A stretch of 64,000 bases of DNA from Chlorobiota bacterium (GCA_044224515.1 JBGAKH010000011.1:14960-78959), one strand, 5' to 3'; shown: positions 17,443 to 36,647, counted from the first letter of the stretch. Notes: generated from the letters alone by a model not told the origin. Made by a program: numbers and translations.

Positions 17443-17457
17443 ATTGGAAGTATGGTT

Positions 17458-17670
17458 TCAGATGGTGTTTGAATTGGCTCTTGAAATCTCCTCAGCAATG
17501 TCTATCAAATCCTGCCCCTGAATAACGAGATAAGGAGACGCTGTAATCGTCATGGTCTGCGTCTCCTTTTTCGTAAGTTCCAGCCCCTTGTACATCTCGA
17601 GTCCTGTCGTATACCACATTATCCGGAAGTATTTCTGTGACTTTCGCGTGACACGCATGGTATTCGTCAC
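17458..17670 (-). pseudogene. 3' fragment of a phage virion-morphogenesis (Mu G-like) gene
   Basis: 70-aa ORF matches the C-terminal 70 aa of the 51979..52692 product (RKSQKYFRIMWY / RSRKYFWMMYY; ASPYLVIQGQDLIDIAEEISR) but lacks the N-terminal two-thirds. Confidence 0.6.
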
Positions 17671-18025
17671 TCCGAACCGTTAAGCAGTAGCATAGCTTGA
17701 AAAACCGCAGCTGATAAGCCGCTTCTCAATGAAAGTTAGGTCGTGGAATTCGTATTGCCTATGTTTACTGATCCGCGTTATAACATGCAGTAATTGATAC
17801 ACTTCGTGAAGTGCACTAGGGGTATGTAGCATCAAGGTGCTAGATTAATCGGCAGAGGAATGTGTGGGGCTTTAGGGTGGATTGTCCACTTTGTCCGCTG
17901 CAGTTAAGGGGTGTAACTAACACTGTTTATATTGTGTTGAACCAAAGATTATCGTGCGGAACGGCAACTCAACAGTAGACCAATTGTGCTGATCCTAGTG
18001 GTTGCGAGTTGGAGTGTAAGCCACA

Positions 18026-19570: not shown

Positions 19571-19583
19571 CATAATCTTTTTG

Positions 19584-20417
19584 CTACCACAGCTGTGAGC
19601 GGCTCCGAGTTTTAGCAATCTCCTCCGCAATATCAATCAAATCCTGTCTTTGAATGACGATGAAAGGAGATGCCGGAATAGTTATTTCCAGCGTCTCCTT
19701 TTTCGTTAGTGCCAGACCTTTGTACAAGGCCGCTGCTTCACTCAGGCGCACGATTGATTTTGAATGTGTTGTCGTATCCTCGCCCTTCTTCTCAGCTCTC
19801 TTCCTTCTCTTCTCAGCTTTGCTCAAGGTGTCTGTGAGCTTCTTGCGCCGGGACTTATCACCGGTGCCAGTGAGCGCGTAGTACATCATCCAGAAGTACT
19901 TGCGTGAGCGTGGGGTAATGCGAACCGTATGAGTGGATCCGAACTGCTGCGCTCGAGCCTGAGCTTTGTTTGAGCTAATGCTTACTTGGTTCGTACCGGA
20001 AACGCTCACCTCAATACTGGCAGCAAGTCCTCCACCGGTTCGTGCGAGTGTTCGCTCGGTGCTTTTTCCCACTGCTGCTTAAGCAACGCGAGTGCTGGCA
20101 GCCAGTGGCTTCCACCTGTCGCTTCCACCCGAGAACGGCGTGATACCAGCATCGCTTGAGTTGTAGCGTCCGCGCTCTTTAAAGTTCTGCTCGAACGATG
20201 CTCGCAGCACCTCGGCAATTTGGCGCATAGCCTCTGGCGGTATCTGTGCAGTCTCAGTTCGGTAATGACATTCGCGACGGAAACGATGTGTCGACCGTCG
20301 TGGAAATGGGGGGGCACTGGGAGTGGATACTCCATAGATGGCAAGAATCGAGCTGTCGACAATGTGTTTATAGAACGATAGTGGAGGTCGTTGAAGTACG
20401 AATTGGTGTATCCTCAT
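19584..20417 (-). pseudogene. Phage virion-morphogenesis (Mu G-like) gene copy inactivated by an in-frame stop
   Basis: Two same-frame ORFs (19584..20072 and 20079..20417) together align at ~90% aa identity with the 237-aa product of 51979..52692. Where the intact copy has Tyr (RVA-Y-AAVGKS), this copy has TAA. The N-terminal ~35 codons are replaced by unrelated sequence. Confidence 0.7.
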
Positions 20418-20419
20418 CC

Positions 20420-20530
20420 GGCATCAACAGGACAAAAAATGTATGGCGGCTTAACCACATACGTTCGGTACTACAATGAGGGACGATTACACAGTAGTCT
20501 GAAGCACCAAACACCGGTTGCAGTTTATCA
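20420..20530 (+). mobile_element. Remnant 3' end of an IS3-family (rve/DDE integrase) transposase gene
   Basis: Translates to ...YGGLTTYVRYYNEGRLHSSLKHQTPVAVYHQKK*, the conserved C-terminal tail of IS3-family OrfB transposases. No upstream catalytic domain is present. Confidence 0.55.
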
Positions 20531-20606
20531 CCAGAAGAAGTAGTTTAGACGTTGCATCCGGGACAGAAAAAGATTTACGCAGAAATCCTAAGATTTTGTC
20601 CGAAGA

Positions 20607-22961
20607 ATGGGGGGGCTCAACCGAAGCAAAAGAACTTACATTGATATATTTATGAAAAGAAGTCGTTTCTGGCATATCCTTTTACTGATGTTCACAGTTC
20701 ATCTTACAACGATTGCCGATGCAGGAATTCCAGTTTTTACCAGTTTAGGTACAGACTACACCGGGTCAGTTGTAGTTGATAATACGATATTTATATACGG
20801 TGAGAATGGCGTTATGATGCGTTCAACCGATCAAGGGTCTAATTGGACAAGATTTACTATTCCGGGACCGTTTCGTAAGATCAAAGGTGTCGTGGCTATT
20901 GGGCATTCAATTTATGCCGCAGATCAGCTCGCCGAGATCTACACTACTGACATAGTAACTTGCAATTGGCAGCCTCTACATGCTGTGTCAGATATGCTTG
21001 AGAATGACTCTGTGGTTGGGATGTTCCGGGAGAAAAACGCCGGTAATATTGTGATAGTGTCTCACAATAGTGTCACATATTTTGATTCCACGTTTCAAGT
21101 GAAGAGAACACTACTGGATAGTTCTCTTAACATTCAGTATGCAAGTATAGTTGGAAACACTATTATGGTCGCTAACAACGTGAAAACTTACATACTTGAT
21201 CGTAACAACGGTTACAAACCTGTGGTTTGGAAGAAGCCCGCTTATTTACAGTGTTCAAACTGCCTCCTCCCAAGCAATGTATGCGATGCTGGAGATAGCT
21301 TATTGGTCAAATACGGAATAGTATGGTATATAGTATCTCCTGATATGCAACAAGGTCGAGTAGTGGAACACAGCGATGGACTTGTTGCGGAGTACCGTGA
21401 CAGATTCACTGTCTTAGAGAATAGTTATGATGCTCCAACTGACCATTCGACGCTTCGATCACGATGTTTCAGAGAAACCAGCGGCCAAACCATTCGCTTC
21501 GACACGTTGATTCAGGAAGATGAGTACTATGTTGGCAGGGTTTACTTAAGCCGCATGAGAACGGTTGGTGATTCGACAATAGTTGCATTTGGAAAGAATA
21601 ATACAATCGTTGTTAGTCGAGACGGTGGACGGACATGGCATTTTAAATCTTATAATGCATATGGTCCTGTGCTTAAAATGCGCGACTCACTGTATGGAAT
21701 CACCAACGATCGCATTAGAGTCATTACGACAAAGGATGGCAATTGTACGTGGCTGCCGCAAAAAATGACTTGTGATACTACCGACCATGGCTGGTTTTCC
21801 GGAGGAGACGTATTCTACCTGGACAGTGTAGCGCTGATGGTTTGTAATAATGCCAACGGATGGACTAAAACGAACTACCGATTCATTTCCGAAAAGGATG
21901 GCGATGTGGTATATGGTAACATACCAGAGTGGAGAAGTGTATATTCAGTAAATAGTATGAGCGTTCTCAAAATTGACGATAGGTGGTCAATTTATCGTAG
22001 TGGACAAGGAGTAAGCTCCATGACTCAGGATTACTGGTACACCACTTTATCTATTCTCGATTCGAATTATAAACCGTTAAGTGTTAAGCTTTATGATTCA
22101 CTTCGAATCAGGAATGTCATAGACTTAGGATTAAAGAAACTCACCATATTTACGTCATATAGGGTCGATGACTATAACACCTCGAATTTATATGAATCAA
22201 CAGACGGAGGAGAATCTTGGACAAAATATACTACGAAAATATCTGCTGGTAATAACTATGATGGTCAGATAGTTAGCAGTGGTGACTTTCTGTTTGTGCC
22301 TAGTAACTATAAAGATTCTATTGGGTCTCGACACAATAGAATGGAGTGGATTGAAGCAAATAAGTATGAGAGTCATGGGGTCTGTTTTGAAGACACGGTG
22401 ACCGATATTACCTCGGTTGTAAACTGGAAAGGCAAAATATATTACGGGCAATTTGGTAGCTTAGTATTGCACTACGCCAAAAGTAGTGACCCTTTAGATT
22501 GGCTCAAGATCGCCCCATTTGGATATCTGTCGTATCACTGTTTTGGAACCCAGGGAGATTGTATGCTTGTTTCTCTTGCAAAAATAAGCTCAGGTAGTAT
22601 TTCCTCGGCAAGACAGTACGGATTATTGACATATTCCGGCGAATTGAGTTCTGTCAGTGAGGCCCATGTAGAAAATGATGCTAGTTTGTATCTACATTCG
22701 ACATATCCAAATCCGTGCAAAACTGTATGCAAATCTCACTATTCACATGATGACCAAGACGAGATTGGTGCGGCAAATATTAGTCTATATGACATTAACG
22801 GATTCGTTATTGATACTCAGGGATACAGTGTTGACGTTGCAAACACAACACTGCTAGAATGCGATATCACTCTTGACCTTACAAAAATACCGAGTGGAAT
22901 ATATGTACTTAGGGTTCGAAGTGGTACTGGTGCTAAATCTGTAAAAATATTGAAACTATAG
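20607..22961 (+). CDS. Secreted BNR-like repeat protein with T9SS CTD (paralog family A)
   Basis: 784 aa, signal peptide, STDQGSNWTR / SRDGGRTWHF / STDGGESWTK motifs. C-terminal ISLYDINGFVID...GIYVLRV CTD. Paralog of 15124..17442. Confidence 0.65.
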   Translation: MGGLNRSKRTYIDIFMKRSRFWHILLLMFTVHLTTIADAGIPVFTSLGTDYTGSVVVDNTIFIYGENGVMMRSTDQGSNWTRFTIPGPFRKIKGVVAIGHSIYAADQLAEIYTTDIVTCNWQPLHAVSDMLENDSVVGMFREKNAGNIVIVSHNSVTYFDSTFQVKRTLLDSSLNIQYASIVGNTIMVANNVKTYILDRNNGYKPVVWKKPAYLQCSNCLLPSNVCDAGDSLLVKYGIVWYIVSPDMQQGRVVEHSDGLVAEYRDRFTVLENSYDAPTDHSTLRSRCFRETSGQTIRFDTLIQEDEYYVGRVYLSRMRTVGDSTIVAFGKNNTIVVSRDGGRTWHFKSYNAYGPVLKMRDSLYGITNDRIRVITTKDGNCTWLPQKMTCDTTDHGWFSGGDVFYLDSVALMVCNNANGWTKTNYRFISEKDGDVVYGNIPEWRSVYSVNSMSVLKIDDRWSIYRSGQGVSSMTQDYWYTTLSILDSNYKPLSVKLYDSLRIRNVIDLGLKKLTIFTSYRVDDYNTSNLYESTDGGESWTKYTTKISAGNNYDGQIVSSGDFLFVPSNYKDSIGSRHNRMEWIEANKYESHGVCFEDTVTDITSVVNWKGKIYYGQFGSLVLHYAKSSDPLDWLKIAPFGYLSYHCFGTQGDCMLVSLAKISSGSISSARQYGLLTYSGELSSVSEAHVENDASLYLHSTYPNPCKTVCKSHYSHDDQDEIGAANISLYDINGFVIDTQGYSVDVANTTLLECDITLDLTKIPSGIYVLRVRSGTGAKSVKILKL

Positions 22962-24493: not shown

Positions 24494-25043
24494 CCGCACG
24501 ACATCGATTTACGTTCTTCTGTGTAAGAAGAAATGAGTGCATTTATATCTAAATGGTTGTTGCATCAACAACGTCTTGCTGCCAAGAATCGGTAAAAAAG
24601 TCCACGGTTGTATGTATTTCTAGTAGTGAGTAAACATTAACTGGCTCTCATTCTGAGTTGGATATTTTGCGTTGGAGGACGGCTTTCAACGCTACAGCTT
24701 TCAACGACGGGTTGTCATACTAACATCTTACAGTCTAGTTGGACAATCCGACCACTTCACCCCAGCAAATCCATATCGAGTTGATCAAGCATCTTCCCGT
24801 CAGACCTTCCAACTCCTAGCTCTCGAAGTTACACTTGTGCTGAAACATACATTGCGGATCAGTAAAGACATCAGAGACGGAAACGATGAGTCGACTGTTG
24901 TGGAAATGGTGGGTCATTAGGTGTGGATTCTCCAGACCTGCCGACAAACTCAAACTAGAGTGAATAGTAGCTTCCGAGAAGATGTTCCAAATGTGCTTGG
25001 CTTTACAAGGCGGGGTGCAACGCAATTGCGGAAAGAAAAAATA

Positions 25044-25073
25044 AAGCCCTTGTCTAATAATAGTCCAAGGGCT
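25044..25073. terminator. Hairpin (AAGCCCTTG...CAAGGGCT) upstream of the integrase
   Basis: 9-bp stem with a 13-nt loop in the intergenic region; preceded by the palindrome CGCAATTGCG. Confidence 0.3.
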
Positions 25074-25295
25074 GAAGAAGAATTGTCGTAAGAGACAGGG
25101 TATGGTTCTTACGAAATTGGATACGTGGGACCTGAGGGACGCTCTGCGGTGTTTTTACATTGCTAGAGTTGTCCGCCTGTTGAAAACAAACACCCGAAAA
25201 TAGGCTTGATTCTGCGTTTCGCGCTCGCGAGTTGTGCGCTGCTTGGTAGTTTTGATTAGTTCAAGAAAGTTCAAAACTGCCCAAAAGCTGCCCAA

Positions 25296-26495
25296 GTGCC
25301 CAAGGTAAATTTCTACATCGAGTCCTACAAAAACCAGCTCGGAGAGTCGCAGCTTCGAGCTCAGATGACCTATGGCAACAAGCGCCTTCGCGTGCCTACA
25401 CTTTTGAGTGTCAAACCAGAGGACTGGGATCCAGTCAAACAGCAGGTTCGAAAGTCTGCGAAGGGGAGCGCCAAACAAAATCACATCCTATCAACCATCA
25501 AGGCACGATTGCTCGACATCTTTCAAGACTTCCAGCTCGCGGGACAGTTCTCGCCCACGGTGGAGCAGATCACAGGTGAGTTCAATAGAAGTACGAACCA
25601 GAAGACCGAGACTATAGAGACGCTCTTTGATGCGTTCATAGCAGAGAAGAGCCCGCTCGTGACAGCAAACCTCATCAAGCACTACGTTATAGCCTTCAAT
25701 CACCTAAAGGCATTCTCAAAGGCAGCACGTGCGCCACTGGTGCTGCAGAACATGGATGAAGGATACTACACTCGCCTGCGCGGGTACCTGGTGGAGCAGG
25801 GCATGCTCAACAACACGATCGGCAATCAGATCAAGTATCTCAAAGCGTTCCTTGCATGGTGCGACCGGCAGGGCTACGCAGTGCACCCTGGTTATAAGCT
25901 ATGGAAGAAGCTTAAAGAGAAGGTGAGTATTGTGACGCTGACCGAAGACGAGCTTGTAGCGATCGAGGCGCTTGATCTTTCGGCCACTCCAGGACTGGCG
26001 CGCACCCGGACACTGTTCTTGCTTGAATGCTACTCCGGTCTCAGATGGTCAGACGCCTCCCGAATAACGAAAGCTTCGCTCCACTCGGACTACTTGCTAG
26101 TGAACGTTCGTAAAACACAAGAGCCCTTGCGTATTCCGCTCACAAGACAGCTCAAGTTGGTAGTGGAGACACTGCTATCCGGCGAGATGCCAAAGGTCTC
26201 AGCACAGAAGTTCAACGATCAGATTAAAGAGGTCTGCCGGCGTGCTGGGATTGACGCCGAGGTGCAGCACGTCAGACATAGTGGGGCTGAGAGACGAGAG
26301 GCGCATTTCGCTAAGTGGCAGCTTGTTACATCGCACACCGGACGTCGGACGTTTGTAACCTTATCACTGCAGAAAGGAATGCGGCCGGAGGTCCTGATGC
26401 AGATCACCGGCCACAAAGACATTGGGACTATGATGCGCTACGTCAATATCTTGGGGGAGACCACTGCGAAGGAGATGAGGAAGGCATGGAGCTAA
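25296..26495 (+). CDS. Tyrosine-type site-specific recombinase (phage integrase)
   Basis: C-terminal catalytic region with HTGRRTF (Arg), GHKDIGTMMRY (His...Tyr). N-terminal arm/SAM-like domain typical of Bacteroidota integrases. GTG start. Confidence 0.8.
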   Translation: MPKVNFYIESYKNQLGESQLRAQMTYGNKRLRVPTLLSVKPEDWDPVKQQVRKSAKGSAKQNHILSTIKARLLDIFQDFQLAGQFSPTVEQITGEFNRSTNQKTETIETLFDAFIAEKSPLVTANLIKHYVIAFNHLKAFSKAARAPLVLQNMDEGYYTRLRGYLVEQGMLNNTIGNQIKYLKAFLAWCDRQGYAVHPGYKLWKKLKEKVSIVTLTEDELVAIEALDLSATPGLARTRTLFLLECYSGLRWSDASRITKASLHSDYLLVNVRKTQEPLRIPLTRQLKLVVETLLSGEMPKVSAQKFNDQIKEVCRRAGIDAEVQHVRHSGAERREAHFAKWQLVTSHTGRRTFVTLSLQKGMRPEVLMQITGHKDIGTMMRYVNILGETTAKEMRKAWS

Positions 26496-26511: not shown

Positions 26512-27267
26512 CTATACGATACGTAACACCGGGCCTGCTGACACATTGGGGGTCTCATTCCATTCTTTGCCGAGTAATTCCCGTCCGTTTGCTTTCTTGC
26601 TTCGTCTCAGACCGTCTGCACCCCAAGTACCCCACTGCTTGAAGAAGAAAGCAGTATTCTGTCTCTCACATTGCAACTTAATATTGAGAGCCCACTCTTC
26701 CTTCATCGGCCGAGCATTTGCACCACTTTCACCACCAACGATCACCCAATGAATTCCCTTAAGATTCAACTTGCCAACGTCCTCTAAAAGAGGCTCAATC
26801 GAGAGAAATCGAATCTTTGCTTTGATTTTTCTCAAGACGTCAATGCGGTTCTTCTTAAGAGAATTCTCCACCGTCACCCCTAACCAAACATTCTCAGGAC
26901 ATTGCCTGCTTCTGAAATATCTTTCAAGTCTATCTTCTCTCTTTGTGAGAATCTGGTATGTGTGCCAAGGGGTTTCAACAATTGTATCGAATACTCTATC
27001 TAAGAAATCATCAGGCATCTTTTCATGAAACAAATCACTCATTGAGTTGACGAAGTACTTTGTCGGTTTCTTGACAGATTTCGGTGCGTCAAGTCGTTCA
27101 GGCAGAAGGTTGAATTTGAACCCTTTTTCATACCCAGGTGTTCCCATCGCTTTCAATCTGCGCGCCATAACTTCAGCATAACAGAATTTGCATCCTGCCG
27201 ATACCTTGGTACAACCAACACTAGGGTTCCAAGTTGCCTCGGTCCACTCAATCTTACTTTGACTCAT
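26512..27267 (-). CDS. Phage Gp37/Gp68-family (three-Cys-motif, DUF5131-like) protein
   Basis: N-terminal KIEWTEATWNPSVGCTKVSAGCKFCYA, i.e. the IEWT...WNP...GC...GC.FCYA signature of the Gp37/Gp68 family. Overlaps the upstream partner gene by 14 nt. Confidence 0.6.
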   Translation of the reverse strand: MSQSKIEWTEATWNPSVGCTKVSAGCKFCYAEVMARRLKAMGTPGYEKGFKFNLLPERLDAPKSVKKPTKYFVNSMSDLFHEKMPDDFLDRVFDTIVETPWHTYQILTKREDRLERYFRSRQCPENVWLGVTVENSLKKNRIDVLRKIKAKIRFLSIEPLLEDVGKLNLKGIHWVIVGGESGANARPMKEEWALNIKLQCERQNTAFFFKQWGTWGADGLRRSKKANGRELLGKEWNETPNVSAGPVLRIV

Positions 27268-28435
27268 GACCCCTTGATGCTAGTGAGAAAACGGCTAAAA
27301 CTTCATTCTTACTGTAGTGCTCGTATGCAATATAGAAACTGTTCGCTTTACGAACTTCGCCAGAATTGTAAGTTACTATTACCACCCTGCGTTTTACGAG
27401 ATCAGCCAGGACTTTTCGAGCATGTTTTGGAAGGTACGAGTTTGTAACCGTTATCTCGTACAATTGAACATTGGTCCTTGACTCGCTTACTGCTTGAAGT
27501 ATTAGACCACGTAGCTTGACAAGGTTTCGTTCAGACTCTTCCAACAACTCCTCATCCGCAAAGAGAGATTCTGTTCCGGATGGCTGTTCCCAAGTCTTAC
27601 CATATCTTGGGTCGATTAAGAACAGGGCTTCCAGTGCCTTCTCCAAACCATATATGTGTGGCGTTACGAAAAAAAGCGCAAAAATTTGACCCTTAACATC
27701 ACTTGTAATACGGAGTGATTTAGCGTAGTATTTGTCGCCGTACTTCAGCGCCTCAGTAAGATACTCAATGAGCTCAAACCTGCTTGGTAACTTGGACCAT
27801 ATGTTGTGCTTTGAATCGAAAAAGCTGCGTAGTAGCTCTTGTAGTGGCTTAAAAAATACCTCTTCTGAGTCTTTGGCAGGACCTATAAAACGCTGTATAT
27901 GGCTAATAGGTGAAAACAAAAATATTTCTGTACGGCCATTAGACAACAATTTATCGAGCAGTACTTTTGTTAGGCCCTTGTAGCCCCAAGGATCTATTAA
28001 AATCAAATTCTTAACAGTTGAATTCTGTCTAACGATGGCAGAATGAACCTTTTCTAAAAACTCCAGCCCGTCGTCGTGACTAGTTTCAATGTTGAATTTG
28101 ACTGTTGTAAGGTCATACTTTGACAAAGCACTTTGAAGCTCCAAGATCCGTTTTTTTTTGTCGTTAAAATGAAGATTTAGACGGCGACTTGCGCTATCAT
28201 CAAATTTCTCCGTCAACTCAATCGCTGTATCGACAGTCCTGATGGGACTACCTTTTCCATCGCCGTTATAGAGACCGGGTCCACAGTAAGCATCATATAT
28301 ATTAATACACGAAATGTAATCAATGTTGAGCATTACAGATAGATACCGAGTCAAGTAAAGTTGCCAAAAATCAAGTTTGGCCTCTGAATGTTTCTTTAGT
28401 GTTTGAGTATGTCTAGTCGGAGCTTTGTTAGTCAT
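27254..28435 (-). CDS. Partner protein of the three-Cys-motif enzyme (TcmP-like?), Rossmann/MTase-like motifs
   Basis: 393 aa, translationally coupled to the Gp37/Gp68 gene. IYDAYCGPGLY (motif-I-like GxG) followed ~100 aa later by LILIDPWGY (motif-IV-like D-P-x-aromatic). Confidence 0.4.
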   Translation of the reverse strand: MTNKAPTRHTQTLKKHSEAKLDFWQLYLTRYLSVMLNIDYISCINIYDAYCGPGLYNGDGKGSPIRTVDTAIELTEKFDDSASRRLNLHFNDKKKRILELQSALSKYDLTTVKFNIETSHDDGLEFLEKVHSAIVRQNSTVKNLILIDPWGYKGLTKVLLDKLLSNGRTEIFLFSPISHIQRFIGPAKDSEEVFFKPLQELLRSFFDSKHNIWSKLPSRFELIEYLTEALKYGDKYYAKSLRITSDVKGQIFALFFVTPHIYGLEKALEALFLIDPRYGKTWEQPSGTESLFADEELLEESERNLVKLRGLILQAVSESRTNVQLYEITVTNSYLPKHARKVLADLVKRRVVIVTYNSGEVRKANSFYIAYEHYSKNEVLAVFSLASRGHESK

Positions 28436-28710
28436 TGTAGCCTCGGAGATCTGTCTGCCGAAATAATAGGATGCATAATTATGGATGTTTTCAGTATTTC
28501 ACCAACCTTAAGTTTTTACATGCAGTTAAGCGAGTGAAATAAAAAGTGTGCTTGCGAATCAGTATCTATGCGACTCTCAATCTTCTCTAATACGCTCGAA
28601 TGCACGAATATTTAAAAAAGAGACTCGAAAAAGAATGATGTAGTATCTTTAATCTAATTGCAACGCACTGCGTGTCAATCGAAATATTGATACCTAGTAC
28701 AAACAGTGTG

Positions 28711-29547
28711 CTATACACGTCTCGATTTTAGAAAATTCGAAAACGCCGAACACGCGACTAAAAAGAACTTTGCTTCATCAAAGTCGACTTCATGGTCATC
28801 TTCGATAAGTGCATGGCGTATGCCTCCTGCGTCACTTGTGTATCCGTACAGTGACGAGAAAGCTTTTCGAATCGCACCGTGTAACTGTCCTCTTTCTTGG
28901 AGAAATTTTAGAGCGTCCTCAATGCGAGCATTAGCGTCGCCTGTAACTAAAACGCTCGCGGACTCTATGGAAGATATTGACTCTTTTACCGAATTGCGGT
29001 AGTCCGGAGTTTCTCGGTGTGTTAAGTGACGAAGTGCCGTAGTCAAGTGAGTAGAAACGCTCTCCCATTGATCTTCAAATGTTATGGCCGACTCAATTGA
29101 CGAAATTTCAATAGTATCAGTTATAGGTGTTATGATGCCGTTTATTATCCGGTATCCACATAGCTCCTTCTCAAACTCGGCATTGAGTAAATTGGATGCA
29201 GTAGCTACTCTGTTCCGGGCCATAACGCTCCAAATATACTCAATGAGATCATAGACTTTATACCAAGGGGTAGCTCTCCCAAAAAACCAACTCTCTAATT
29301 CCTGTCTGAAACTTAAATATGATAAGGTGCCGTTGATGTCTCGTGGAAAGTTGTTCAATTTATAGATAAAAAACTCGCACCAGATGAGCTTGCAAATCCT
29401 CGTTGTGTTCGGCTTTTCATCATGCGGAATTCTTTCCAAGACATTAGTTGTAACACAATTCCAAATACGAACTCTAAGGTTATAATCTATGTCGTTTAGT
29501 TGTAAGTCCACTCTCGGTGGTAAATATCCATTTCTAGTAGAGAACAA
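28711..29547 (-). CDS. Hypothetical protein, possible abortive-infection (AbiJ/HEPN-like) protein
   Basis: 278-aa cytoplasmic singleton in a defense island. R/H-rich C-terminal segments (ALRHLTHRETPDYRN, DAGGIRHALIEDDH). Assignment is tentative. Confidence 0.25.
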   Translation of the reverse strand: MFSTRNGYLPPRVDLQLNDIDYNLRVRIWNCVTTNVLERIPHDEKPNTTRICKLIWCEFFIYKLNNFPRDINGTLSYLSFRQELESWFFGRATPWYKVYDLIEYIWSVMARNRVATASNLLNAEFEKELCGYRIINGIITPITDTIEISSIESAITFEDQWESVSTHLTTALRHLTHRETPDYRNSVKESISSIESASVLVTGDANARIEDALKFLQERGQLHGAIRKAFSSLYGYTSDAGGIRHALIEDDHEVDFDEAKFFLVACSAFSNFLKSRRV

Positions 29548-29595
29548 GGATGCTCCTTATTGAATGTAACGGTACCTAGTGAGACACAATAACAG

Positions 29596-30567
29596 TTAAA
29601 ACGAAAACGTATGGCTGGCATTTAACTGCACACTCGTGACAAAGTAGTCTTGATCAAGCTTGAAGGCTCCACCTTGCTTGCCGGTGATGAAGATACACTC
29701 AGATTTGATCGAGATTTTTGTGTCAGATGACGTAGTAACATTCACACAGATGCCGGCATAGGCATTCGTAAACTCATGGTTGCCGTGAAAGATTCCGGGG
29801 AGATTGCCACTTGCAAGACCCATATATCGGACGCCACCGTATAGGGCTCCAGTCTCACCATAGCCGATTTGACCTGAAAGATCAAAAGTTCCGACGCCGG
29901 TCTGAATGGACTTGCGAACCTTAGAGTTTGTGTCCGTTGGATTGCTCAACTCAGAGTACCCAATTTGAACGCTTCCCATAGTGAAGGTCCCGACGAACCC
30001 AGCAGAGAATCTTTTGCTGGGATCTTCTTGTTTTGAAAGGTTAAAAGCCTGAATGAGGTCTACCTGGAGTGACAATCCCAGTTCGATAGTGTGCAAAGGC
30101 TGTTGGAGTATGCGTTTTAGGTTGGCCAATGTTGATATCTCTCCCGTTGTGTCACCGACCGGCAGTCCAGATCTCAGATAGCCACCTGCAGCAAAGCCAT
30201 TTGAAAGTGATGTGACTGGAGCTTTCAAATTGATGGTAGGTTGTACTGAGAGCGAAGACAGAGGGGTGAAGAATCCTGTTAAGGCATCTAGCTTACTTGT
30301 GGTGTCGGTAGCGTCTTTTTTCATACTAGCGGCATGCGTCGAGATAGAAGAAGGAAGAGCATCTAGTGCAGCGTTAATTTTTGTAGCGTCAACAGCTTTA
30401 TCTTTTAATAAGTCACCGAGTACTATTCGCGTGATGTTCAACGAATCGATAACCGGTGCTGCCTTTACTTTTGCTTTGCCTCGCACAGTATTTGTTATAT
30501 CGAACTGCGAGTATGAGCTTACGCTGACGAAGGCAAGTGTCGTCAGAACCGCCACGATGAACTTCAT
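29596..30567 (-). CDS. Outer-membrane beta-barrel-like secreted protein
   Basis: Probable start at MKFIVAVLTTLAFVSVSSYSQ (signal peptide). Alternating amphipathic beta-strand pattern. C-terminal ...ASHTFSF ends in an aromatic residue, as in OMPs. Confidence 0.45.
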   Translation of the reverse strand: MKFIVAVLTTLAFVSVSSYSQFDITNTVRGKAKVKAAPVIDSLNITRIVLGDLLKDKAVDATKINAALDALPSSISTHAASMKKDATDTTSKLDALTGFFTPLSSLSVQPTINLKAPVTSLSNGFAAGGYLRSGLPVGDTTGEISTLANLKRILQQPLHTIELGLSLQVDLIQAFNLSKQEDPSKRFSAGFVGTFTMGSVQIGYSELSNPTDTNSKVRKSIQTGVGTFDLSGQIGYGETGALYGGVRYMGLASGNLPGIFHGNHEFTNAYAGICVNVTTSSDTKISIKSECIFITGKQGGAFKLDQDYFVTSVQLNASHTFSF

Positions 30568-31011
30568 TGTCGATCCCCGATTAGTTGGAAATAGGGCACC
30601 GATGTGCACATCAGTGTCCGCTTGATGACTTTGGGTAGTACCTATTTACTCGTGGGAGCTAAAACGACATAACAATGTCCATACATGAGTTGACATGCAG
30701 GAATCTGTCTGCCGATAACGTGCGGTGTGGATCGCACACCTCCAAGTGTGGATGGGAGGTTGGCCCTAATATAACATGGTTTTAGATTAATGCAAGTACT
30801 GTCGTGCATCAATATCGAGTTAAAACAACTTCTCTGAAGTTTTGAGGACTTGTTTGTTGATTACGGGGCCGGGGTGTTAAATAGTAAAGTAGTTGCTTAC
30901 ACCATCAGTTCTACGCACTAGGCCAGGAAGCATGATGAACAGCTTACCACGGGAGGCGTAGACTGTGCCGGGGATGGAGAGGCTAGTTTTGGCCATTATG
31001 AATCTCTTCTG

Positions 31012-31467
31012 TCATGGCCTCTTAAGCCACAAAAAACATGTTGGCTGGGGAAAGTGTATTGCAGTAGTTTGAACTAGATACTCCTTACCGTCGACTACTC
31101 GAATGACAGCATGCCAGCCTGCATCTGATGGACCTTGTGTATAGTTGTATTGACCTGATGCAAACTCAAGCGCTATTGGATCAAATCGAAGTGATCCTTT
31201 CCAAGTTCTTGTAGTACCCTGCCCCAAATTATCAATGCCACTTACTTCAAACATGCCTGCGTTTTTAATGCTTGTTTCTAAACGCACCTTACATTCTGGC
31301 TGAGTAGTTAGTGGTTTGCGTGTGACCGGATTGCAAACAATGTAGTCTCCAGCAATTTTTTTTGATCTGAGATAAAGTAACAATGGACGAACTATGAATT
31401 CGTAACCAACTAAGAAAATCACTGACGCGACGAGATTCAGAAGAATGTTATCTAACACATCACACAT
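31012..31467 (-). CDS. Small membrane-anchored protein (1 N-terminal TM)
   Basis: 151 aa with N-terminal TM helix ILLNLVASVIFLVGYEFIV. Lies 25 nt downstream of the MTase::Mrr gene on the same strand. Confidence 0.4.
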   Translation of the reverse strand: MCDVLDNILLNLVASVIFLVGYEFIVRPLLLYLRSKKIAGDYIVCNPVTRKPLTTQPECKVRLETSIKNAGMFEVSGIDNLGQGTTRTWKGSLRFDPIALEFASGQYNYTQGPSDAGWHAVIRVVDGKEYLVQTTAIHFPQPTCFLWLKRP

Positions 31468-31492
31468 ATGAGCTCCTAATTCATGGTTGCTA

Positions 31493-33151
31493 CTACAGCC
31501 CTAACTGGTCCTGTTGGCCACGTCGTTCTATTTGTGCTTTCTTGAAGTTGAGTGCACCAACACCCAAGTCTGGATATTCAGCCCTCTTCGTTTTGTTCAG
31601 TAATTGCTCGATTGTGAGGATCTGCACCTTGGGATACTGCCGTCCGATCGCGGAGTCATAATATCCGGCAGTTATAGCCTCAGTCTCCATTGGCTTGGTG
31701 GGTGCTGCCAACGTAACGAAGAGCCCAATGGATGCCTTCTCGCGGTCCACGACGTGCGCAAGGTCGCGCACCATGGCAACATTTACATTGTCACCACCTT
31801 TGACCGACACGACGATCTTCTTTGCAGCACCGGCGTCATCTTGGAAGTAGATGAGTCCATCGATGCCACCATCAGCGCCTTTCTTTTTGCCTTGAAAAGG
31901 CTGAGCGTTGACTAGTGAGCATGCCCACCATTGGAATTGATACTTGTCGCGCAGGGCAAGGTCCTTTGCGCTGTCGAGATCTTTCGGAGTTCCCTCGACG
32001 TCAAACTTGATACCTGGAAAGGCATCACGTAGTCTTTTCTCGATCAGAGAAATTGCAAGGTGCGTGATGTCTATGCCGATCCATTGCCGGCCGAGTTTCT
32101 GTGCTGCATGGACGGCTGTGCCGCAACCGCAGAAGGGATCCAACACAACACCTGAATCTTCTGTGGATGACCGAATGATCCTTTCTAAAAGCGCGATGGG
32201 TTTCTGAGTTGGATAACCAAGACGCTCTAAGGCTTGAGGATTTACTGGTGGGATATCTACCCATATATTCTGCAGGGGAACACCTGGCATTTCGTCAGCG
32301 TACTGAAGAAGAGTTGGCGTGCCAGTCCTAGTGTAACGCAATAGACCTTGGGATTCGTACTCCTCCATTTTTTCACGTTTAATGGCCCAGGTTCTGGTCG
32401 AAGCAGGCAACCTACCCTTCCATTCGTAAAGTAGCGACGCCGATCCCGAACTGTGTCGCGGAGCATCCAGTGGAACGGTCCGATAGTATCTCCCGTTTTC
32501 GTCCTTCTTAAAATGCGTATTGTAATATTCCTCTCGATACGCGGTGTGCTGTGTGTGCCAAAAAGATTTGCTGCTTTTCGTGTAATATAGAATAGTGTCG
32601 GAAACACGACCAAACGCCTTTGGATCATTATGGGCGTTCGCTCGTTTCCAAATTATTTCATTTTTGAACATTGCGTTCCCAAACACACCATCTAACAAAA
32701 TCTTGAGATAATGACTTGCAGTGGAGTCGCAATGAAGAAAGAGCGACCCCGTGGACCTTAGTACTCGGTGCAATTCAAGTAGCCGGTTTGCCATCATCAC
32801 TAGATACGCCATCATGTCATTCTCACCAAGGAACGAACGCAGCGCTCGAATCATCTCCGCGACATCAGTATTGCGCTGATGCAGGATCTCATTGAACTCA
32901 CGCTCAGCCTGTTCTCCCCAGTGCCATGAATCCTCAAAGGCCGTGATCTGTGCTTCGGACTGGTGACCTTTGGGGGACTTGAACAGGAGGTTATAGTCCC
33001 GCTTCGAGTTGAACGGCGGATCCAAGTAGATCAGGTCGACAGACTCGGACGCGATGTGGTCGCGCAGGATGTTGAGGTTGTCGCCGAAGAAGAGTTTGTT
33101 CATATCATTTCCAGTCCCTTTTGAGTCAAAAAGATAGGGTAGGTCCGCCAA
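31493..33151 (-). CDS. N6-adenine/N4-cytosine DNA methyltransferase fused to a C-terminal Mrr-type PD-(D/E)XK nuclease domain
   Basis: Motif IV IYLDPPFNS precedes motif I VLDPFCGCGTAVHAA (beta-class amino-MTase order). The C-terminal ~130 aa carry GADGGIDGLIY...KKIVVSVKGG, the DGGIDG/(V/I)xxK signature of Mrr_cat restriction-endonuclease folds. Confidence 0.7.
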   Translation of the reverse strand: MADLPYLFDSKGTGNDMNKLFFGDNLNILRDHIASESVDLIYLDPPFNSKRDYNLLFKSPKGHQSEAQITAFEDSWHWGEQAEREFNEILHQRNTDVAEMIRALRSFLGENDMMAYLVMMANRLLELHRVLRSTGSLFLHCDSTASHYLKILLDGVFGNAMFKNEIIWKRANAHNDPKAFGRVSDTILYYTKSSKSFWHTQHTAYREEYYNTHFKKDENGRYYRTVPLDAPRHSSGSASLLYEWKGRLPASTRTWAIKREKMEEYESQGLLRYTRTGTPTLLQYADEMPGVPLQNIWVDIPPVNPQALERLGYPTQKPIALLERIIRSSTEDSGVVLDPFCGCGTAVHAAQKLGRQWIGIDITHLAISLIEKRLRDAFPGIKFDVEGTPKDLDSAKDLALRDKYQFQWWACSLVNAQPFQGKKKGADGGIDGLIYFQDDAGAAKKIVVSVKGGDNVNVAMVRDLAHVVDREKASIGLFVTLAAPTKPMETEAITAGYYDSAIGRQYPKVQILTIEQLLNKTKRAEYPDLGVGALNFKKAQIERRGQQDQLGL

Positions 33152-33153
33152 CG

Positions 33154-33699
33154 TTACTTCTTTAATCGCTTATCTTCAGTTTGAATTATGTCCTCCATCC
33201 ATTCGTCGATTATTACTTTAACGACATACCAAACAGCTAGTATGACGCTAATTGTTGTTGCTGATAGTGCTAAGCATAATGCTGCCGTCCAATCTCGTAA
33301 GACCAGCCCAAAACTAATTTGTGCTGTTGATGTTAGATATGATAAGAGTACGCTATATAAAAGTAACTTACTAAGATTCTCCATTGGGGTGAACTTGTTC
33401 TCGATGTTTGGATTTTTCGTTCGAGCATCGGCGTATTTCTTCTCATAATTATCATTTTCAAACACTTCTTTAGCCTTTGCCAATATGAATGTCTTCATAG
33501 ATAGTAGAAAGCTTCCAGCTGTGATAAAGCCTGTAAACATGGCAGGTCTTATCTTTTCGAAAGTTTCCAAGAATTTTGCATCACAATTGACAATGTGATA
33601 GACAATCGCACCTACGCCTACAAATACGATAGATGAAGTTAGTAAAATACCTCTTGGTGTGGGTGAGAATATATTCAATGTGTGGATGGTCGAATTCAT
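33154..33699 (-). CDS. Small 4-TM membrane protein
   Basis: 181 aa with four hydrophobic helices. Overlaps the upstream gene by 4 nt (ATGA), and its stop abuts the MTase start. Confidence 0.45.
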   Translation of the reverse strand: MNSTIHTLNIFSPTPRGILLTSSIVFVGVGAIVYHIVNCDAKFLETFEKIRPAMFTGFITAGSFLLSMKTFILAKAKEVFENDNYEKKYADARTKNPNIENKFTPMENLSKLLLYSVLLSYLTSTAQISFGLVLRDWTAALCLALSATTISVILAVWYVVKVIIDEWMEDIIQTEDKRLKK

Positions 33700-34655
33700 G
33701 AATTTATCACATCGCGTGCTTCAGTGTTGGCCAAATCAATTAAATGGCTAACCAATCTAGATGAGCTTAGATCCGCAGCCAATGTCTCGGCAGTGTAGTG
33801 TATGTTAGCAAAAATGTCATTGAAATTGACACGTTCCACAATCATCTTGTCCGATGTTGCTAGAGAATCGAAATGTCGATAGTTGTCATCGGAATCCAAT
33901 CCAGTTATTTTGTATTGAATCTCATTGTTGCTGCTGACGAAACTACGTAAAAACTGCTTCAACTGTCCAGCCATTCTCGATTCACGACGAACAACAAATT
34001 TCTCAGTCCTGCGCTCAACGAACTCTCTTAAACGCGCGTATCCTCGAGGTAGCTGGCGGAGTTGTGCATGCTCTACAGAAAACTCAAAGCCTGAGACTGA
34101 CTGAATGGCATTAAGAAAATCATCCAAGTTATTAGTATTCATAATCAAGATAGGATTTACAAGCGACTCTTGCCATTGCTTCTTGATGCGTGCTTTTTCT
34201 ATAGGGGTCAAATCGTTGTCTGGAGATTCGTAGTGGGAATTTTCTAACACTCCATATTTTCTCCGGATAAAAGTAAAAAATTCGGAAATGGATGTAGACC
34301 CCGAATAGTGCTGATATAGACCGTGCAGTAGTTTTGGATTATGACTATCAATACGCAGTAAAAAGTGATTGAACTCGGCCATCTTTTCATTGTCGTCGAA
34401 TCTCTGAGGGTCTACAGTAAAAGCTTGAGTCGTGCCCGTTATTTTGATAAAAGCATCCATGTTCTTGATGCGCAGCAATACGCCACACCAATATGGATAA
34501 TCGGCATCGGTTATATTAGCGAAGGGAAGCATTCCATAAATGATGTTGCCTCTATACACTTCTACAGCGGTGCTTGTATTAATATCATTAACAAGCTCAT
34601 CTGCTGTAGTGACACCAGTTAATAGTATGCTAAAAGCGTATGTAAAAACTTCCAT
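33696..34655 (-). CDS. Hypothetical cytoplasmic protein (first gene of the MTase::Mrr operon)
   Basis: 319 aa, no recognisable motif. Translationally coupled to the 4-TM gene. Confidence 0.4.
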   Translation of the reverse strand: MEVFTYAFSILLTGVTTADELVNDINTSTAVEVYRGNIIYGMLPFANITDADYPYWCGVLLRIKNMDAFIKITGTTQAFTVDPQRFDDNEKMAEFNHFLLRIDSHNPKLLHGLYQHYSGSTSISEFFTFIRRKYGVLENSHYESPDNDLTPIEKARIKKQWQESLVNPILIMNTNNLDDFLNAIQSVSGFEFSVEHAQLRQLPRGYARLREFVERRTEKFVVRRESRMAGQLKQFLRSFVSSNNEIQYKITGLDSDDNYRHFDSLATSDKMIVERVNFNDIFANIHYTAETLAADLSSSRLVSHLIDLANTEARDVINS

Positions 34656-34973
34656 TTGTCGCGAACAGAAATGATTGCTATTCCAGATACAGTAGTGTCG
34701 AGCTCAAGTATAGTATTATTTCTTAAATGCAGACTACACAAAAACTACACAGTTGCTAAGAATTAATAACTTCCACATCCCACTCCCAGGCCCAGCAATC
34801 ACTGCCGTTGTCCAAGTAGACATTGTAGCAGGTCTTCACACCGCCCTCATGCCTATCGATCGTGTGTTTTCGCTCTACGCCAAGCTGCTGGTACATCTCC
34901 GAAAACACCCTCGCGCCAATTGAGAGAACGTAGCCTCTGAAGGTGTTGGTGGAGAGGACGAGCCAATATGACC

Positions 34974-35951
34974 TTACAACCCACCCCGAATACCAAAACC
35001 AACACTCAACCCTCGATCCGCGTCGTAATGAATCGTGGCACTACCTTGCTCTCCTAGACCTAGTCGAAGTCCGCCGCAGGGTTGCCAATCCGTACCTGAA
35101 CCGGTATAGACCTGTTGATTCGAGTAAATAGAATACTCACCTGTATAGTATGCTGCTCCAAGGTCAATTGACGTGTTCTTCGTTATCGGAATACTGATCC
35201 CAAATGAGATACCGCTCATGCTCAGCTCTCCCATCGGGAATACATCTTTTGATGGCTGCAGGAAGGATGTATACTCAGCCCACACATAAGAAACCCTGGC
35301 AATCACACCAGCACCACCGATTGTAGTTGACGCCCGGCTTGACGCAAGGGACAATGAAAACCCCAAGTCAAGGCTATTGCGAAATGCCGCAAGATAATCG
35401 TCGTCACTGTTAGTTATGTCGCAAGTGGATGCGCAATACTCTAGCTTTGTTAGATAAGCGTTCGACCCATTGTGTTTTTGCTCTATGCTCAGAACTGCAT
35501 CCATTTCGTTGGGCATTCCACAGCGCGCCGACCATCTATATAGAAGCTCATTCTCATTCGGCTGGCTGAATGAACCTGATCCGTAATCACTTGCAAGCGA
35601 ATCCTTGGCCTGCTTGAATGCTGCTAGTACGCTTGAATTTAAACTAAGTACTGATTGCCTGAACGTAACGACCGACTGCCCACTGAAGTAAACGATAACA
35701 ACCTGTTCGGTTGTTAGGGCGGAACTCGTTTTGACGTACTTCCTGTACTCGGCAACATCTACAGATGGCTTGTAGCCAAGGGCTAAAATGGCTTTCTGAA
35801 AACCAAGTGTATCTGTTGGGATCTTGACGACCATTTGCTCATCAAGGATATATATTCTCGGGCACAATGTAGGGGAGCTCCATAGGCACGTCACGTCAAA
35901 CGCAATGGCAGAAATGAGTATTAAAAATCTTCGCATCAAGCAGAATGCCAC
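34974..35951 (-). CDS. Secreted/lipoprotein beta-rich protein co-transcribed with the prophage repressor
   Basis: Signal peptide (RRFLILISAIAFDVTC). Gly/Ser/Tyr-rich beta-strand-like C-terminal half. Start codon lies 4 nt downstream of the repressor stop. Confidence 0.45.
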   Translation of the reverse strand: MAFCLMRRFLILISAIAFDVTCLWSSPTLCPRIYILDEQMVVKIPTDTLGFQKAILALGYKPSVDVAEYRKYVKTSSALTTEQVVIVYFSGQSVVTFRQSVLSLNSSVLAAFKQAKDSLASDYGSGSFSQPNENELLYRWSARCGMPNEMDAVLSIEQKHNGSNAYLTKLEYCASTCDITNSDDDYLAAFRNSLDLGFSLSLASSRASTTIGGAGVIARVSYVWAEYTSFLQPSKDVFPMGELSMSGISFGISIPITKNTSIDLGAAYYTGEYSIYSNQQVYTGSGTDWQPCGGLRLGLGEQGSATIHYDADRGLSVGFGIRGGL

Positions 35952-35954
35952 AGC

Positions 35955-36647
35955 TTAAAGCTTAGGCTTGTAGTTTTTAATGTCAGTGTGAACAGACAGT
36001 ACAACACCTTGAAGTACAGCAGGTGCATCTTCGGTTAAAGGAATGTCTTTGTATCGTTTCGGGCTTTCGCTGCGCAGCCTCAACGTTCCTTCCTCTTCAA
36101 CCAGCCGCTTGACTAAAGTAACACCATTCCTGTTCGCGACGACAATCTGACCAATCAGATCGCGCCAATCCTTGCGAACCCTTGTACACACAAGGAAGCT
36201 CCCATCAAGTATCCCCGCGTAAACCATCGAGTCGCCGGAAGCGAACATGCAAAACCCATCTTCTGGTTTGTCTATTAGCGATGCATCCACTTCACGCTCA
36301 AATGGCGTCGGAGCATCGAGAGGGACTCCAAGCCCAGCGTTAGCATTCTGCGGATAGAACTTGATCTTAACAGTTGTTGCTGTAAAGCTGACGGAATTCT
36401 TAACAAACTGTGCATTAGATTTTGGAGCCTGGTGCGATGAAGCCAAATCGCCTGAAAATAGCATTTCAGCTGGCACCTCAAGTTTGGAAAGCACCAAATC
36501 ACGATCAATTGTGCCTCTGCGCTTCCAATTAGATATCGTAGCAGCTGTCACACCCAAGGCATCGGCCAGCTCTTTATCAGACCTAAAGCCCTGTGAATGT
36601 TTAATGTTGAAAATAATATTTTCAATCTGTAAAGATTTTGCTTGCAT
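35955..36647 (-). CDS. CI/LexA-like prophage repressor (XRE HTH + S24 peptidase domain)
   Basis: N-terminal HTH (ELADALGVTAATISNWKRRG). C-terminal S24 autopeptidase motifs FASGDSMV (Ser) and VTLVKRL (Lys). Confidence 0.8.
   Translation of the reverse strand: MQAKSLQIENIIFNIKHSQGFRSDKELADALGVTAATISNWKRRGTIDRDLVLSKLEVPAEMLFSGDLASSHQAPKSNAQFVKNSVSFTATTVKIKFYPQNANAGLGVPLDAPTPFEREVDASLIDKPEDGFCMFASGDSMVYAGILDGSFLVCTRVRKDWRDLIGQIVVANRNGVTLVKRLVEEEGTLRLRSESPKRYKDIPLTEDAPAVLQGVVLSVHTDIKNYKPKL

Follow-up and report, generated by a model that had tools for sequence, protein, structure and literature searches.

The subject here is a pair of overlapping genes on the minus strand of a prophage in DNA from a Chlorobiota bacterium (GCA_044224515.1 JBGAKH010000011.1:14960-78959), a stretch of 64,000 nucleotides referred to below as the window. 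The upstream gene encodes TcmP, a 'three-Cys-motif partner' with the fold of a class I methyltransferase (MTase), and the downstream gene encodes a DUF5131 (Gp37/Gp68) protein with three invariant cysteines. We tentatively read the pair as a two-subunit DNA modification complex using S-adenosylmethionine (SAM), in which the MTase-like partner would guide a radical SAM enzyme, carried as lysogeny-side cargo of the prophage in phage-host or inter-element conflict; this interpretation is possible, and we hold it with somewhat less than even confidence. The observation of the pair itself was confirmed, and the interpretation first given to it was supported with small corrections. Open reading frames (ORFs) of 251 amino acids (26512-27267) and 393 amino acids (27254-28435), which a preliminary description of this DNA had reported as overlapping, are both present, and the motifs quoted there (IEWT..WNP, the Cys cluster, DAYCGPG and DPWGY) all appear on translation. 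The two genes and their principal elements are as follows.

27254..28435, minus strand: TcmP (three-Cys-motif partner protein; PADLOC PDC-M30A), ORF of 393 amino acids
28376..28390, minus strand: TcmP N-terminal helix motif H16-S-E-A-K20, motif X-like (from conservation)
28274..28294, minus strand: TcmP motif I-like D48-A-Y-C-G52-P-G54 (D-x-F/Y-x-G-x-G), after beta1 (from translation, conservation and model)
27977..27994, minus strand: TcmP motif IV-like D148-P-W-G-Y152-K153, after beta4 (from translation, conservation and model)
27581..28435, minus strand: TcmP N-terminal class I MTase-like Rossmann domain, residues ~1-285 (from model topology and Foldseek)
27365..27571, minus strand: TcmP C-terminal winged helix (GMT-like winged helix-turn-helix, wHTH; residues 289-357; PF22560)
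27254..27267, minus strand: TcmP stop and DUF5131 start overlapping by 14 nt, ATGAGTCAAAGTAA (from sequence)
26512..27267, minus strand: DUF5131/Gp37-Gp68 protein (PADLOC PDC-M30B; radical SAM superfamily subgroup), ORF of 251 amino acids
27223-27252, minus strand: DUF5131 signature IEWTEATWNP (from translation)
27181..27213, minus strand: DUF5131 three-Cys motif C19-x6-C26-x2-C29 in CTKVSAGCKFC, putative ligands of a site-differentiated [4Fe-4S] cluster (from translation and conservation)
26725..26736, minus strand: DUF5131 invariant G178-G-E-S181 (from conservation)
26515..26631, minus strand: DUF5131 conserved basic C-terminal tail, residues 213-251 (from conservation; disordered in the monomer model)

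The 14-nt overlap probably couples translation of the two genes, and a purine-rich AAGGGG lies just 5' of the DUF5131 ATG.

The assignment of the smaller protein to the Gp37/Gp68 (DUF5131) family, as first proposed, is borne out by PF07505, which matches it at 1.7e-104 and 349.1 bits (cutoff 28.9) and aligns residues 3-240 with the full model (positions 1-243 of 243); the PADLOC model PDC-M30B scores 390 bits. Conservation was counted in 77 homologs, for this protein and for TcmP alike. Residues E7, W8, N14, P15, C19, C26 and C29 are invariant (77/77), as is G178-G-E-S181, a segment that may have a role in SAM binding. No cysteine beyond these three is invariant; the sole other conserved one, C200, is found in 58 of the 77. 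This triad is the pattern that would be expected of a cluster whose fourth iron binds SAM. RadicalSAM.org places DUF5131 in the radical SAM superfamily as subgroup Megacluster-5-2, with spore photoproduct lyase (SPL) as 5-3 of the same Megacluster-5 (PMC9477430). TIGR04471 ('radical SAM mobile pair protein A'), which the preliminary description had suggested as a further test, matches residues 15-211 at 1e-30; because its 106.9 bits fall far under the cutoff of 355, the DUF5131 protein is a distant relative and not an equivalog member of that family.

The structural model of the DUF5131 protein has an overall predicted local distance difference test score (pLDDT) of 80.4 and is good over residues 7-212, which form an alpha/beta barrel-like core. 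Its best fold match in the Protein Data Bank (PDB) is SPL (TMq 0.45-0.49; 4fhg at E 3.9e-3 and TMq 0.49). Lipoyl synthase and anSME rank lower among the matches, and generic TIM barrels score similarly. Sequence searches of the PDB with the single protein and with a profile gave no match, SPL included. The C-terminal tail of 39 residues falls below pLDDT 50 over residues 213-232 and 234-251 (block means 35-42); in 40 close homologs, W215, G216, D218, G219, R222, K224, K225, N227, G228, R229, E235, W236, N237 and P240 within it are invariant. Such a tail could become ordered on the partner or on nucleic acid. Its W-G-x-D segment is absent from more distant TcmP partners (29 of the 77) and could be a subfamily-specific interaction element.

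The larger protein belongs to the 'three-Cys-motif partner' family, as had been surmised: TIGR04474 matches it at 1e-32 and 114.1 bits (cutoff 53), residues 15-270 covering positions 1-258 of the 263-position model, and PDC-M30A scores 264 bits over positions 6-368 of 372. It is a divergent member, with no match above 38% identity among 5.8 billion catalogued proteins. An AlphaFold (AF2) model built on 37 homologs is confident (pLDDT 89.6; predicted template modelling score, pTM, 0.88) and has a seven-stranded class I MTase topology (strands 43-48, 85-91, 114-119, 141-147, 169-175, 237-244 and 251-258) followed by a helical winged-helix region. In a Foldseek search of the PDB, all 45 of 45 matches at E <= 1e-3 were SAM-dependent MTases or proteins of the same fold (best 6e-6; all distant, with a template modelling score, TM, <= 0.34 and <=15% identity), among them TYW4, EgtD, HNMT, PsiM, KsgA, Trm5a, COMT and GRAS proteins; a fold search of the viral models in BFVD returned generic class I MTases only (best E 1.4e-6). 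The partner therefore has a class I MTase Rossmann fold and does not lack one, in agreement with the MTase-like character first ascribed to it. PF22560 covers residues 289-357 of the window protein at an E value of 8.6e-4, which is below cutoff; most relatives fit it better, 28 of 37 family members giving a match with E values as low as 1e-11.

The invariant residues of TcmP occupy the places expected of SAM-binding and catalytic motifs. H16 and K20 of the N-terminal helix are found in 77/77 homologs. In motif I, D48 is present in 77, G52 in 76 and G54 in 74 of the 77, with F (72 homologs) or Y (4 homologs) at position 50; N91-D92, at the end of beta2, is conserved as the acidic motif II. In motif IV, D148, P149 and Y152 are invariant (77/77), and every homolog has an aromatic residue at position 150 (Y 73, F 3, W 1). 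With a motif IV that only partly resembles that of amino-MTases, TcmP may plausibly transfer methyl groups.

We surveyed the distribution of the pair in a genome scan with one genome per GTDB species, which gave 274 TcmP relatives; 80 loci were kept, from Bacteroidota, Acidobacteriota, Spirochaetia, Cyanobacteria, Proteobacteria, Ignavibacteria and other groups. Of 81 related loci, 79 have the DUF5131 gene 3' of TcmP and in the same orientation, and the two loci without an intact DUF5131 gene are a contig end and a locus with a DUF5131 remnant. The junction in the 79 loci mostly measures between -4 and +9 nt, and a search starting from close DUF5131 homologs found TcmP upstream with a 4-nt overlap. 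The partnership of TcmP with DUF5131 is thus essentially obligate. On Pseudomonas and Comamonas plasmids the order is reversed, with DUF5131 preceding TcmP; the partnership is therefore family-wide and the gene order subfamily-specific. These reversed pairs lie on the P. aeruginosa plasmid pF046 (L096 6995-9076), where TcmP is longer (438 amino acids), and on a Comamonas plasmid (L097 6360-8751); one directly follows a site-specific integrase and the other directly follows an S24 peptidase gene that overlaps it. At a gammaproteobacterial locus, a second, weak TcmP-like ORF (60 bits; L035 9887-11137, plus strand) stands directly 3' of DUF5131, giving the arrangement TcmP-DUF5131-TcmP-like.

Both families are widespread. 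An exhaustive profile search at E <= 1e-3 found 4,177 TcmP clusters at 50% identity, and DUF5131 occurs in 436 of 72,556 plasmid records and 178 of 50,697 phage records. The two partners differ widely in their rates of evolution. The window DUF5131 protein shares 72-78% identity with its homologs in unrelated phyla. Across the same 77 genomes, median pairwise identity is 55% for DUF5131 vs 36% for TcmP. DUF5131 and TcmP co-vary (Spearman 0.41).

The surroundings of the pair in other genomes are rich in restriction-modification (R-M) genes. N6_Mtase domains are found in 8 of the 67 immediate upstream neighbours and Eco57I domains in 8; 5 are MmeI-like, and the set also includes HsdR, Res, N6_N4 and EcoRI-type methylases, HerA and Fic. 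In several cases a large type IIG/IIL, type I HsdR or Res-like gene adjoins the start of TcmP or overlaps it. The 69 downstream neighbours are mostly unrelated housekeeping genes, and in some genomes the pair stands alone among such genes. The stand-alone copies and the R-M genes upstream mark the pair as an autonomous cassette, with a tendency to be placed at the 3' end of operons for R-M or defence. Neither TcmP nor the DUF5131 protein contains a nuclease domain recognised by Pfam, NCBIfam-type or PADLOC models, and the R-M neighbours vary in type. The upstream and downstream neighbour families also include no conserved nucleotide kinase or other nucleotide-handling gene. Two further loci carry neighbours that look like additional defence-island content, namely a 576-aa PNP_UDP_1 protein beside a 578-aa DUF7768 protein (L093 6779-10245, minus strand) and a 534-aa protein with a dCMP/cytidine deaminase domain (L092 2975-4579, plus strand), each near a TcmP-DUF5131 pair.

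In phages, the families are met both together and apart. Gordonia phage ThankyouJordi encodes a full-length TcmP (95 bits) directly downstream of its immunity repressor and convergent with DUF5131, and this pair lies between integrase and repressor, the same slot as that of the window pair. Mycobacteriophages carry DUF5131 without TcmP in the operon for early replication, within a conserved block in which a DUF4326 gene overlaps the DUF5131 stop and a DNA methylase gene lies upstream. That upstream gene codes for a C5-cytosine methylase (PF00145) in the Mycobacterium prophage prophiT36-2a (L086 4296-7352), and in phage Squirty (L087 2989-4313) it bears the record note 'DNA methylase'. DUF4326 is, we presume, related to the NADAR-type enzymes that reverse ADP-ribosylation of DNA bases. 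The mycobacteriophage genes represent a second, phage-lytic mode of DUF5131 use, and this may be counter-defence. Rhizobium phage RR1-A has a small wHTH gene that overlaps the start of DUF5131. Taken with the mycobacteriophage and TcmP contexts, this places DUF5131 repeatedly beside DNA methylases or DNA-binding proteins. Adjacency to an integrase is seen in the window, on Pseudomonas plasmids and in some phages; as a general rule it was rejected, Phage_integrase being absent from the families matched by at least two of the 67 upstream or 69 downstream neighbours.

In the window, the pair lies directly after the integrase in a prophage moron island, as the preliminary description had it: integrase and DUF5131 converge, with 16 nt between the integrase end and the DUF5131 stop codon, and phage genes follow beyond the pair. 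The prophage comprises the integrase, a minus-strand cargo block that extends down from a CI/S24 repressor, and genes for replication and for Mu-F and tail-S morphogenesis, and it also encodes a helix-turn-helix gene, a PD-(D/E)XK nuclease, an AAA ATPase, an exonuclease, a Prim-Pol and an SNF2-like helicase. Proteins sorted by the type IX secretion system (T9SS) flank it and suggest that its host belongs to the Bacteroidota/FCB group. The features that frame the pair are these.

25296..26495, plus strand: tyrosine integrase, convergent with the pair (Phage_integrase, Arm-DNA-bind_5, Phage_int_SAM_5)
28436..28710, minus strand: intergenic region of 275 nt upstream of TcmP, with one sigma-70-like site TTGACA-16-TAGATT at 28678-28651 (from a motif scan)
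35955..36647, minus strand: CI-type repressor with S24 peptidase domain (Peptidase_S24, Phage_CI_repr)

The sigma-70-like site, a weak promoter candidate, matches the consensus at 10 of 12 positions, and the host probably uses other promoter types. Since a promoter and terminator scan around the pair found no sites above chance, no firm transcription-unit boundaries can be drawn. All cargo genes from the repressor down to the pair are co-directional with the repressor, an arrangement that fits expression of the cargo in the lysogen. The cargo block (26512-35951) has a G+C content of 44.1%, with 40.6% for TcmP and 44.3% for DUF5131, vs 50.3% for the prophage backbone (36000-58600), 52.8% for the integrase and ~50% for the host flank. 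This foreign composition suggests recent horizontal acquisition of the cargo.

Other genes of the cargo deserve mention in their own right. Directly upstream of the pair, at 28711-29547 (minus strand), lies a gene for a 278-aa protein with an AbiJ N-terminal domain 4 (AbiJ-NTD4; PF18863, 2.6e-31); it is a full-length match to the PADLOC single-gene candidate PDC-S32 (2.8e-90) and a second candidate defence gene in the cargo. At 31493-33151 (minus strand), a 552-aa protein fuses an N6_N4 DNA methylase to a Mrr_cat/NA-iREase1 nuclease-like domain within an apparent operon (31012-34655), which has two overlapping ORFs upstream of the fusion (33154-33699 and 33696-34655) and a 151-aa ORF downstream (31012-31467). 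This operon may be an uncharacterised multi-gene R-M-like system. The three ORFs around the fusion have no Pfam or PADLOC match, and in the cargo as a whole five unknown ORFs gave none. Between the replication and morphogenesis modules, a low-GC patch of the prophage encodes a Sortilin/BNR-like protein (50416-51918, plus strand), and similar BNR/Sortilin proteins with T9SS sorting domains occupy a low-GC region left of the integrase (15124-22961, plus strand), so that the prophage may carry or exchange surface-protein cargo. The ~800 nt upstream of the integrase (24494-25295) contain short ORFs only (56-82 aa), and the window holds no tRNA and no Rfam match.

How might such a pair work? In the model that we tentatively favour, the two proteins would form a stoichiometric enzyme, in which TcmP would bind DNA through its C-terminal winged helix and present a nucleotide, probably flipped out, in its amino-MTase-like Rossmann pocket (D-x-F/Y-x-G-x-G, N-D, D-P-aromatic-G-Y); it might also transfer a methyl group. 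The DUF5131 protein would dock on TcmP and DNA, possibly through its basic C-terminal tail, and a [4Fe-4S] cluster on C19, C26 and C29 would reductively cleave SAM. The resulting 5'-deoxyadenosyl radical would abstract a hydrogen from the presented, possibly methylated nucleotide and thereby install or elaborate a DNA modification. In the lysogen, the mark would be written on resident DNA, of host and prophage, as an epigenetic hypermodification. The analysis shows which families the proteins belong to, their folds and invariant motifs, that the genes are obligately linked and coupled, in which contexts they occur and that their base composition is foreign. We infer that either protein may bind SAM, that the DUF5131 protein may hold an Fe-S cluster, that DNA is the probable substrate, that the subunits would divide the labour as described and that the lysogen could benefit; the lysogeny-cargo context argues for a function of the last kind. 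The idea of a modification or defence cassette, already put forward in the preliminary description, agrees with the assignment of the pair to a PADLOC defence candidate (see below) and with the finding of no functional paper.

Several observations weigh against the DNA modification model. On the DUF5131 side, the cysteine spacing is C-x6-C-x2-C, whereas the canonical radical SAM spacing is C-x3-C-x2-C; variant spacings do occur in genuine members. PF04055 (Radical_SAM) matched none of 40 DUF5131 members even at E <= 1, and the fold search of the PDB gave no match at E <= 1e-3, the SPL match being weak. On the TcmP side, the structural matches are all distant (TM <= 0.35) and mostly small-molecule or RNA MTases, so that DNA as the substrate rests on the wHTH and on genomic context. 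No Pfam MTase model matched the Rossmann domain consistently at E <= 1 across 37 members; none of the DNA MTase models N6_Mtase, N6_N4_Mtase, MethyltransfD12 and Eco57I did so, and one isolated Cons_hypoth95 match had an E value of 0.08. PDB sequence searches with TcmP, as a single protein and as a profile, gave no match. The gamma-class arrangement recognised earlier stands insofar as motif I precedes motif IV and the DNA-binding domain is C-terminal, but motif IV itself departs from it, reading D-P-W-G-Y here and D-P-Y-G-Y in most homologs rather than (D/N/S)-P-P-(Y/F/W). Since motif IV is non-canonical and no Pfam MTase model fits, MTase activity of TcmP is unproven. Finally, a modification-only module by itself leaves an anti-phage benefit unexplained, the neighbour survey found no conserved 'reader' nuclease beside the pair, and a literature search on both families and the candidate system names found no functional study.

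The main rival to this model is a radical SAM restriction system of type III-like layout, in which TcmP would act as a Mod-like subunit for recognition and self methylation and the DUF5131 protein as a Res-like subunit that inflicts radical damage (a strand break or a replication-blocking lesion) on unmarked incoming DNA without a nuclease. The coupled, M-then-R-like two-gene layout speaks for it, as does the lack of a nuclease domain in or beside the cassette; the MTase-like motifs of TcmP are all intact, and the DUF5131 protein has no DNA-binding domain of its own while the closest match to its fold is a DNA-acting enzyme. Divergence is much faster in the putative targeting subunit than in the catalytic one (36% vs 55% median identity), and the pair is a PADLOC defence candidate found among R-M genes. 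It also sits in the lysogeny-expressed slot of temperate phages that prophage-encoded defences typically occupy. On the other hand, the wHTH remains alignable, with N322 conserved in 75/77 homologs, and diverges just slightly more than the catalytic domain (identity of 33% vs 37.5%), unlike hypervariable specificity domains, and on these grounds a reading of the wHTH as such a domain was not supported. Many phages, moreover, carry DUF5131 without TcmP, which would be odd for a toxic R subunit. We regard restriction of this layout as unlikely, and the most novel interpretation, that the pair is nuclease-free restriction with a TcmP self mark and DUF5131 radical damage, and so a previously unknown radical-chemistry R-M class, as decidedly unlikely. 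A small molecule instead of DNA could be the target, for prokaryotic viperins use radical SAM enzymes to make antiviral small molecules, and a radical SAM enzyme is also part of the unrelated Ophion system. In such a pathway the DUF5131 protein would make a chain-terminating or toxic nucleotide analogue, TcmP would methylate the product or a precursor, and the wHTH would be autoregulatory only. The predominance of small-molecule MTases among the best PDB matches of TcmP (EgtD, HNMT, PsiM, COMT) is in line with this, and the 72-78% identity of DUF5131 across phyla would fit a universal small substrate. Those MTase matches are distant, however (TM <= 0.35), no nucleotide kinase or nucleotide-handling neighbour is conserved, the nearest DUF5131 fold match acts on DNA, and the fused wHTH and strict 1:1 translational coupling suggest a complex acting on a macromolecule. 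A viperin-like pathway is therefore very unlikely in our estimation.

RNA would be the macromolecule if the two proteins modified tRNA or rRNA, as radical SAM enzymes and class I MTases together do in wybutosine synthesis or in the manner of RlmN/Cfr, and so altered translation of the lysogen or of an infecting phage; TYW4, Trm5a and KsgA are among the top Foldseek matches of TcmP, and some phage annotations label DUF5131 'RNA methyltransferase'. These matches are distant (TM ~0.3) and reflect a shared fold only. A suspected homology of TcmP to the rRNA m6A MTase RlmJ was rejected, E. coli RlmJ reaching an hhalign probability of 3.7% with only the G-S-P tripeptide region aligned. The RlmN/Cfr mechanism uses extra conserved cysteines, which DUF5131 does not have, and the pair is mobile and patchy and lies among R-M and defence genes rather than translation genes; we consider RNA modification highly improbable. 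The structural match to SPL and the shared Megacluster-5 would suit repair, with the DUF5131 protein reversing a DNA lesion or a hostile modification made by a competitor toxin or defence system and TcmP recognising the lesion, and the solo mycobacteriophage DUF5131 that overlaps a DUF4326 gene in an early replication operon could be read in the same way. Yet the SPL match is weak and no sequence-level relation was detected, TcmP keeps the expected SAM-binding and catalytic residues that a pure lesion reader would not need, and placement in defence islands and R-M operons fits repair less well, so that we give this explanation very little credence. As little credence is due to the proposal that DUF5131 is a TIM-barrel metalloenzyme outside the radical SAM group (structural Zn/Fe on the three cysteines) and TcmP a dead MTase-fold scaffold, with an unrelated mobile-element function. 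It could appeal to the non-canonical cysteine spacing and the absence of a PF04055 match at E <= 1, to weak zinc-finger matches (zf-dskA_traR, 7/40 members, best E ~0.1), to generic TIM barrels ranking near radical SAM structures, to the motif IV of TcmP and to the recurrence of the pair beside integrases and S24 repressors. Against it stand the exactly three invariant cysteines, as a structural Zn site would usually need four ligands, the significant homology to TIGR04471 with the curation of DUF5131 into the radical SAM superfamily, and the fact that integrase adjacency is not general across the 67 upstream and 69 downstream neighbours.

If DNA modification by an MTase-like-guided radical SAM enzyme were true, it would be a new enzymatic logic of DNA modification or restriction and possibly bring a new DNA base modification, with relevance to host-range barriers in phage therapy, epigenomic sequencing and enzyme tools. 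Being abundant, mobile and mechanistically opaque, the family is well suited to experiment. What the window contributes is a copy that is clean, intact and foreign in composition, located within a prophage's lysogeny cargo.

Among known systems, the closest is a catalogued candidate. PADLOC assigns both window proteins, which are adjacent, to components A and B of PDC-M30, and the pair is accordingly already catalogued; in the PADLOC scan, only the PDC-M30 and PDC-M41 models matched it. PDC-M30 is a 'guilt-by-embedding' candidate that has not been experimentally validated; a survey of 100 P. aeruginosa strains predicted it in 32, and 68.8% of these belonged to the phage-resistant groups (PMC10855318). 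Membership of a candidate defined by embedding only says nothing on mechanism. COG4422 (gp37) is enriched alongside R-M COGs in sponge symbionts (PMC5649159), and a TcmP gene adjoins the Hna defence gene in Sinorhizobium (PMC12445080). The window pair resembles PDC-M30 in its two genes, in the full-length matches of both proteins, in mobility and in embedding within defence regions, and differs in that its TcmP is very divergent (<=38% identity to any catalogued protein). The window locus is thus a divergent, intact member of a catalogued, uncharacterised pair and adds little novelty itself.

The remaining comparisons concern the single proteins and their possible chemistry. TcmP shares with the gamma-class N6A/N4C DNA MTases (M.TaqI-like; Eco57I/MmeI modules) the class I Rossmann fold and the order of N-terminal helix, motif I, N-D motif II, D-P motif IV and C-terminal DNA-binding domain. 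It differs from them in its D-P-(Y/W/F)-G-Y motif IV, in having no Pfam MTase match, and in a C-terminus that is a conserved wHTH and not a variable target-recognition domain. The TIGR04471 proteins are homologous to DUF5131, and both occur in gene pairs on mobile elements; by its NCBIfam name, however, TIGR04471 is part of another 'radical SAM mobile pair' and is not paired with TcmP. Ophion, a radical SAM defence system, has a different architecture of radical SAM, PHP and PRTase proteins. Non-methyl DNA modification is known from Dnd/Ssp phosphorothioation, Dpd 7-deazaguanine and phage thymidine hypermodification with radical SAM steps; such enzymes are carried by defence islands or phages, sometimes without a restriction partner. 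Unlike Dnd, Ssp and Dpd, the present system is a two-gene cassette without homology to any of their components in the PADLOC scan. SPL, which acts on a flipped-out DNA lesion, has no detectable sequence similarity to DUF5131, differs in cysteine spacing, is ~90 residues longer and does without the obligate MTase-like partner; it is nonetheless the best match of DUF5131 among solved structures and a member of the same Megacluster-5.

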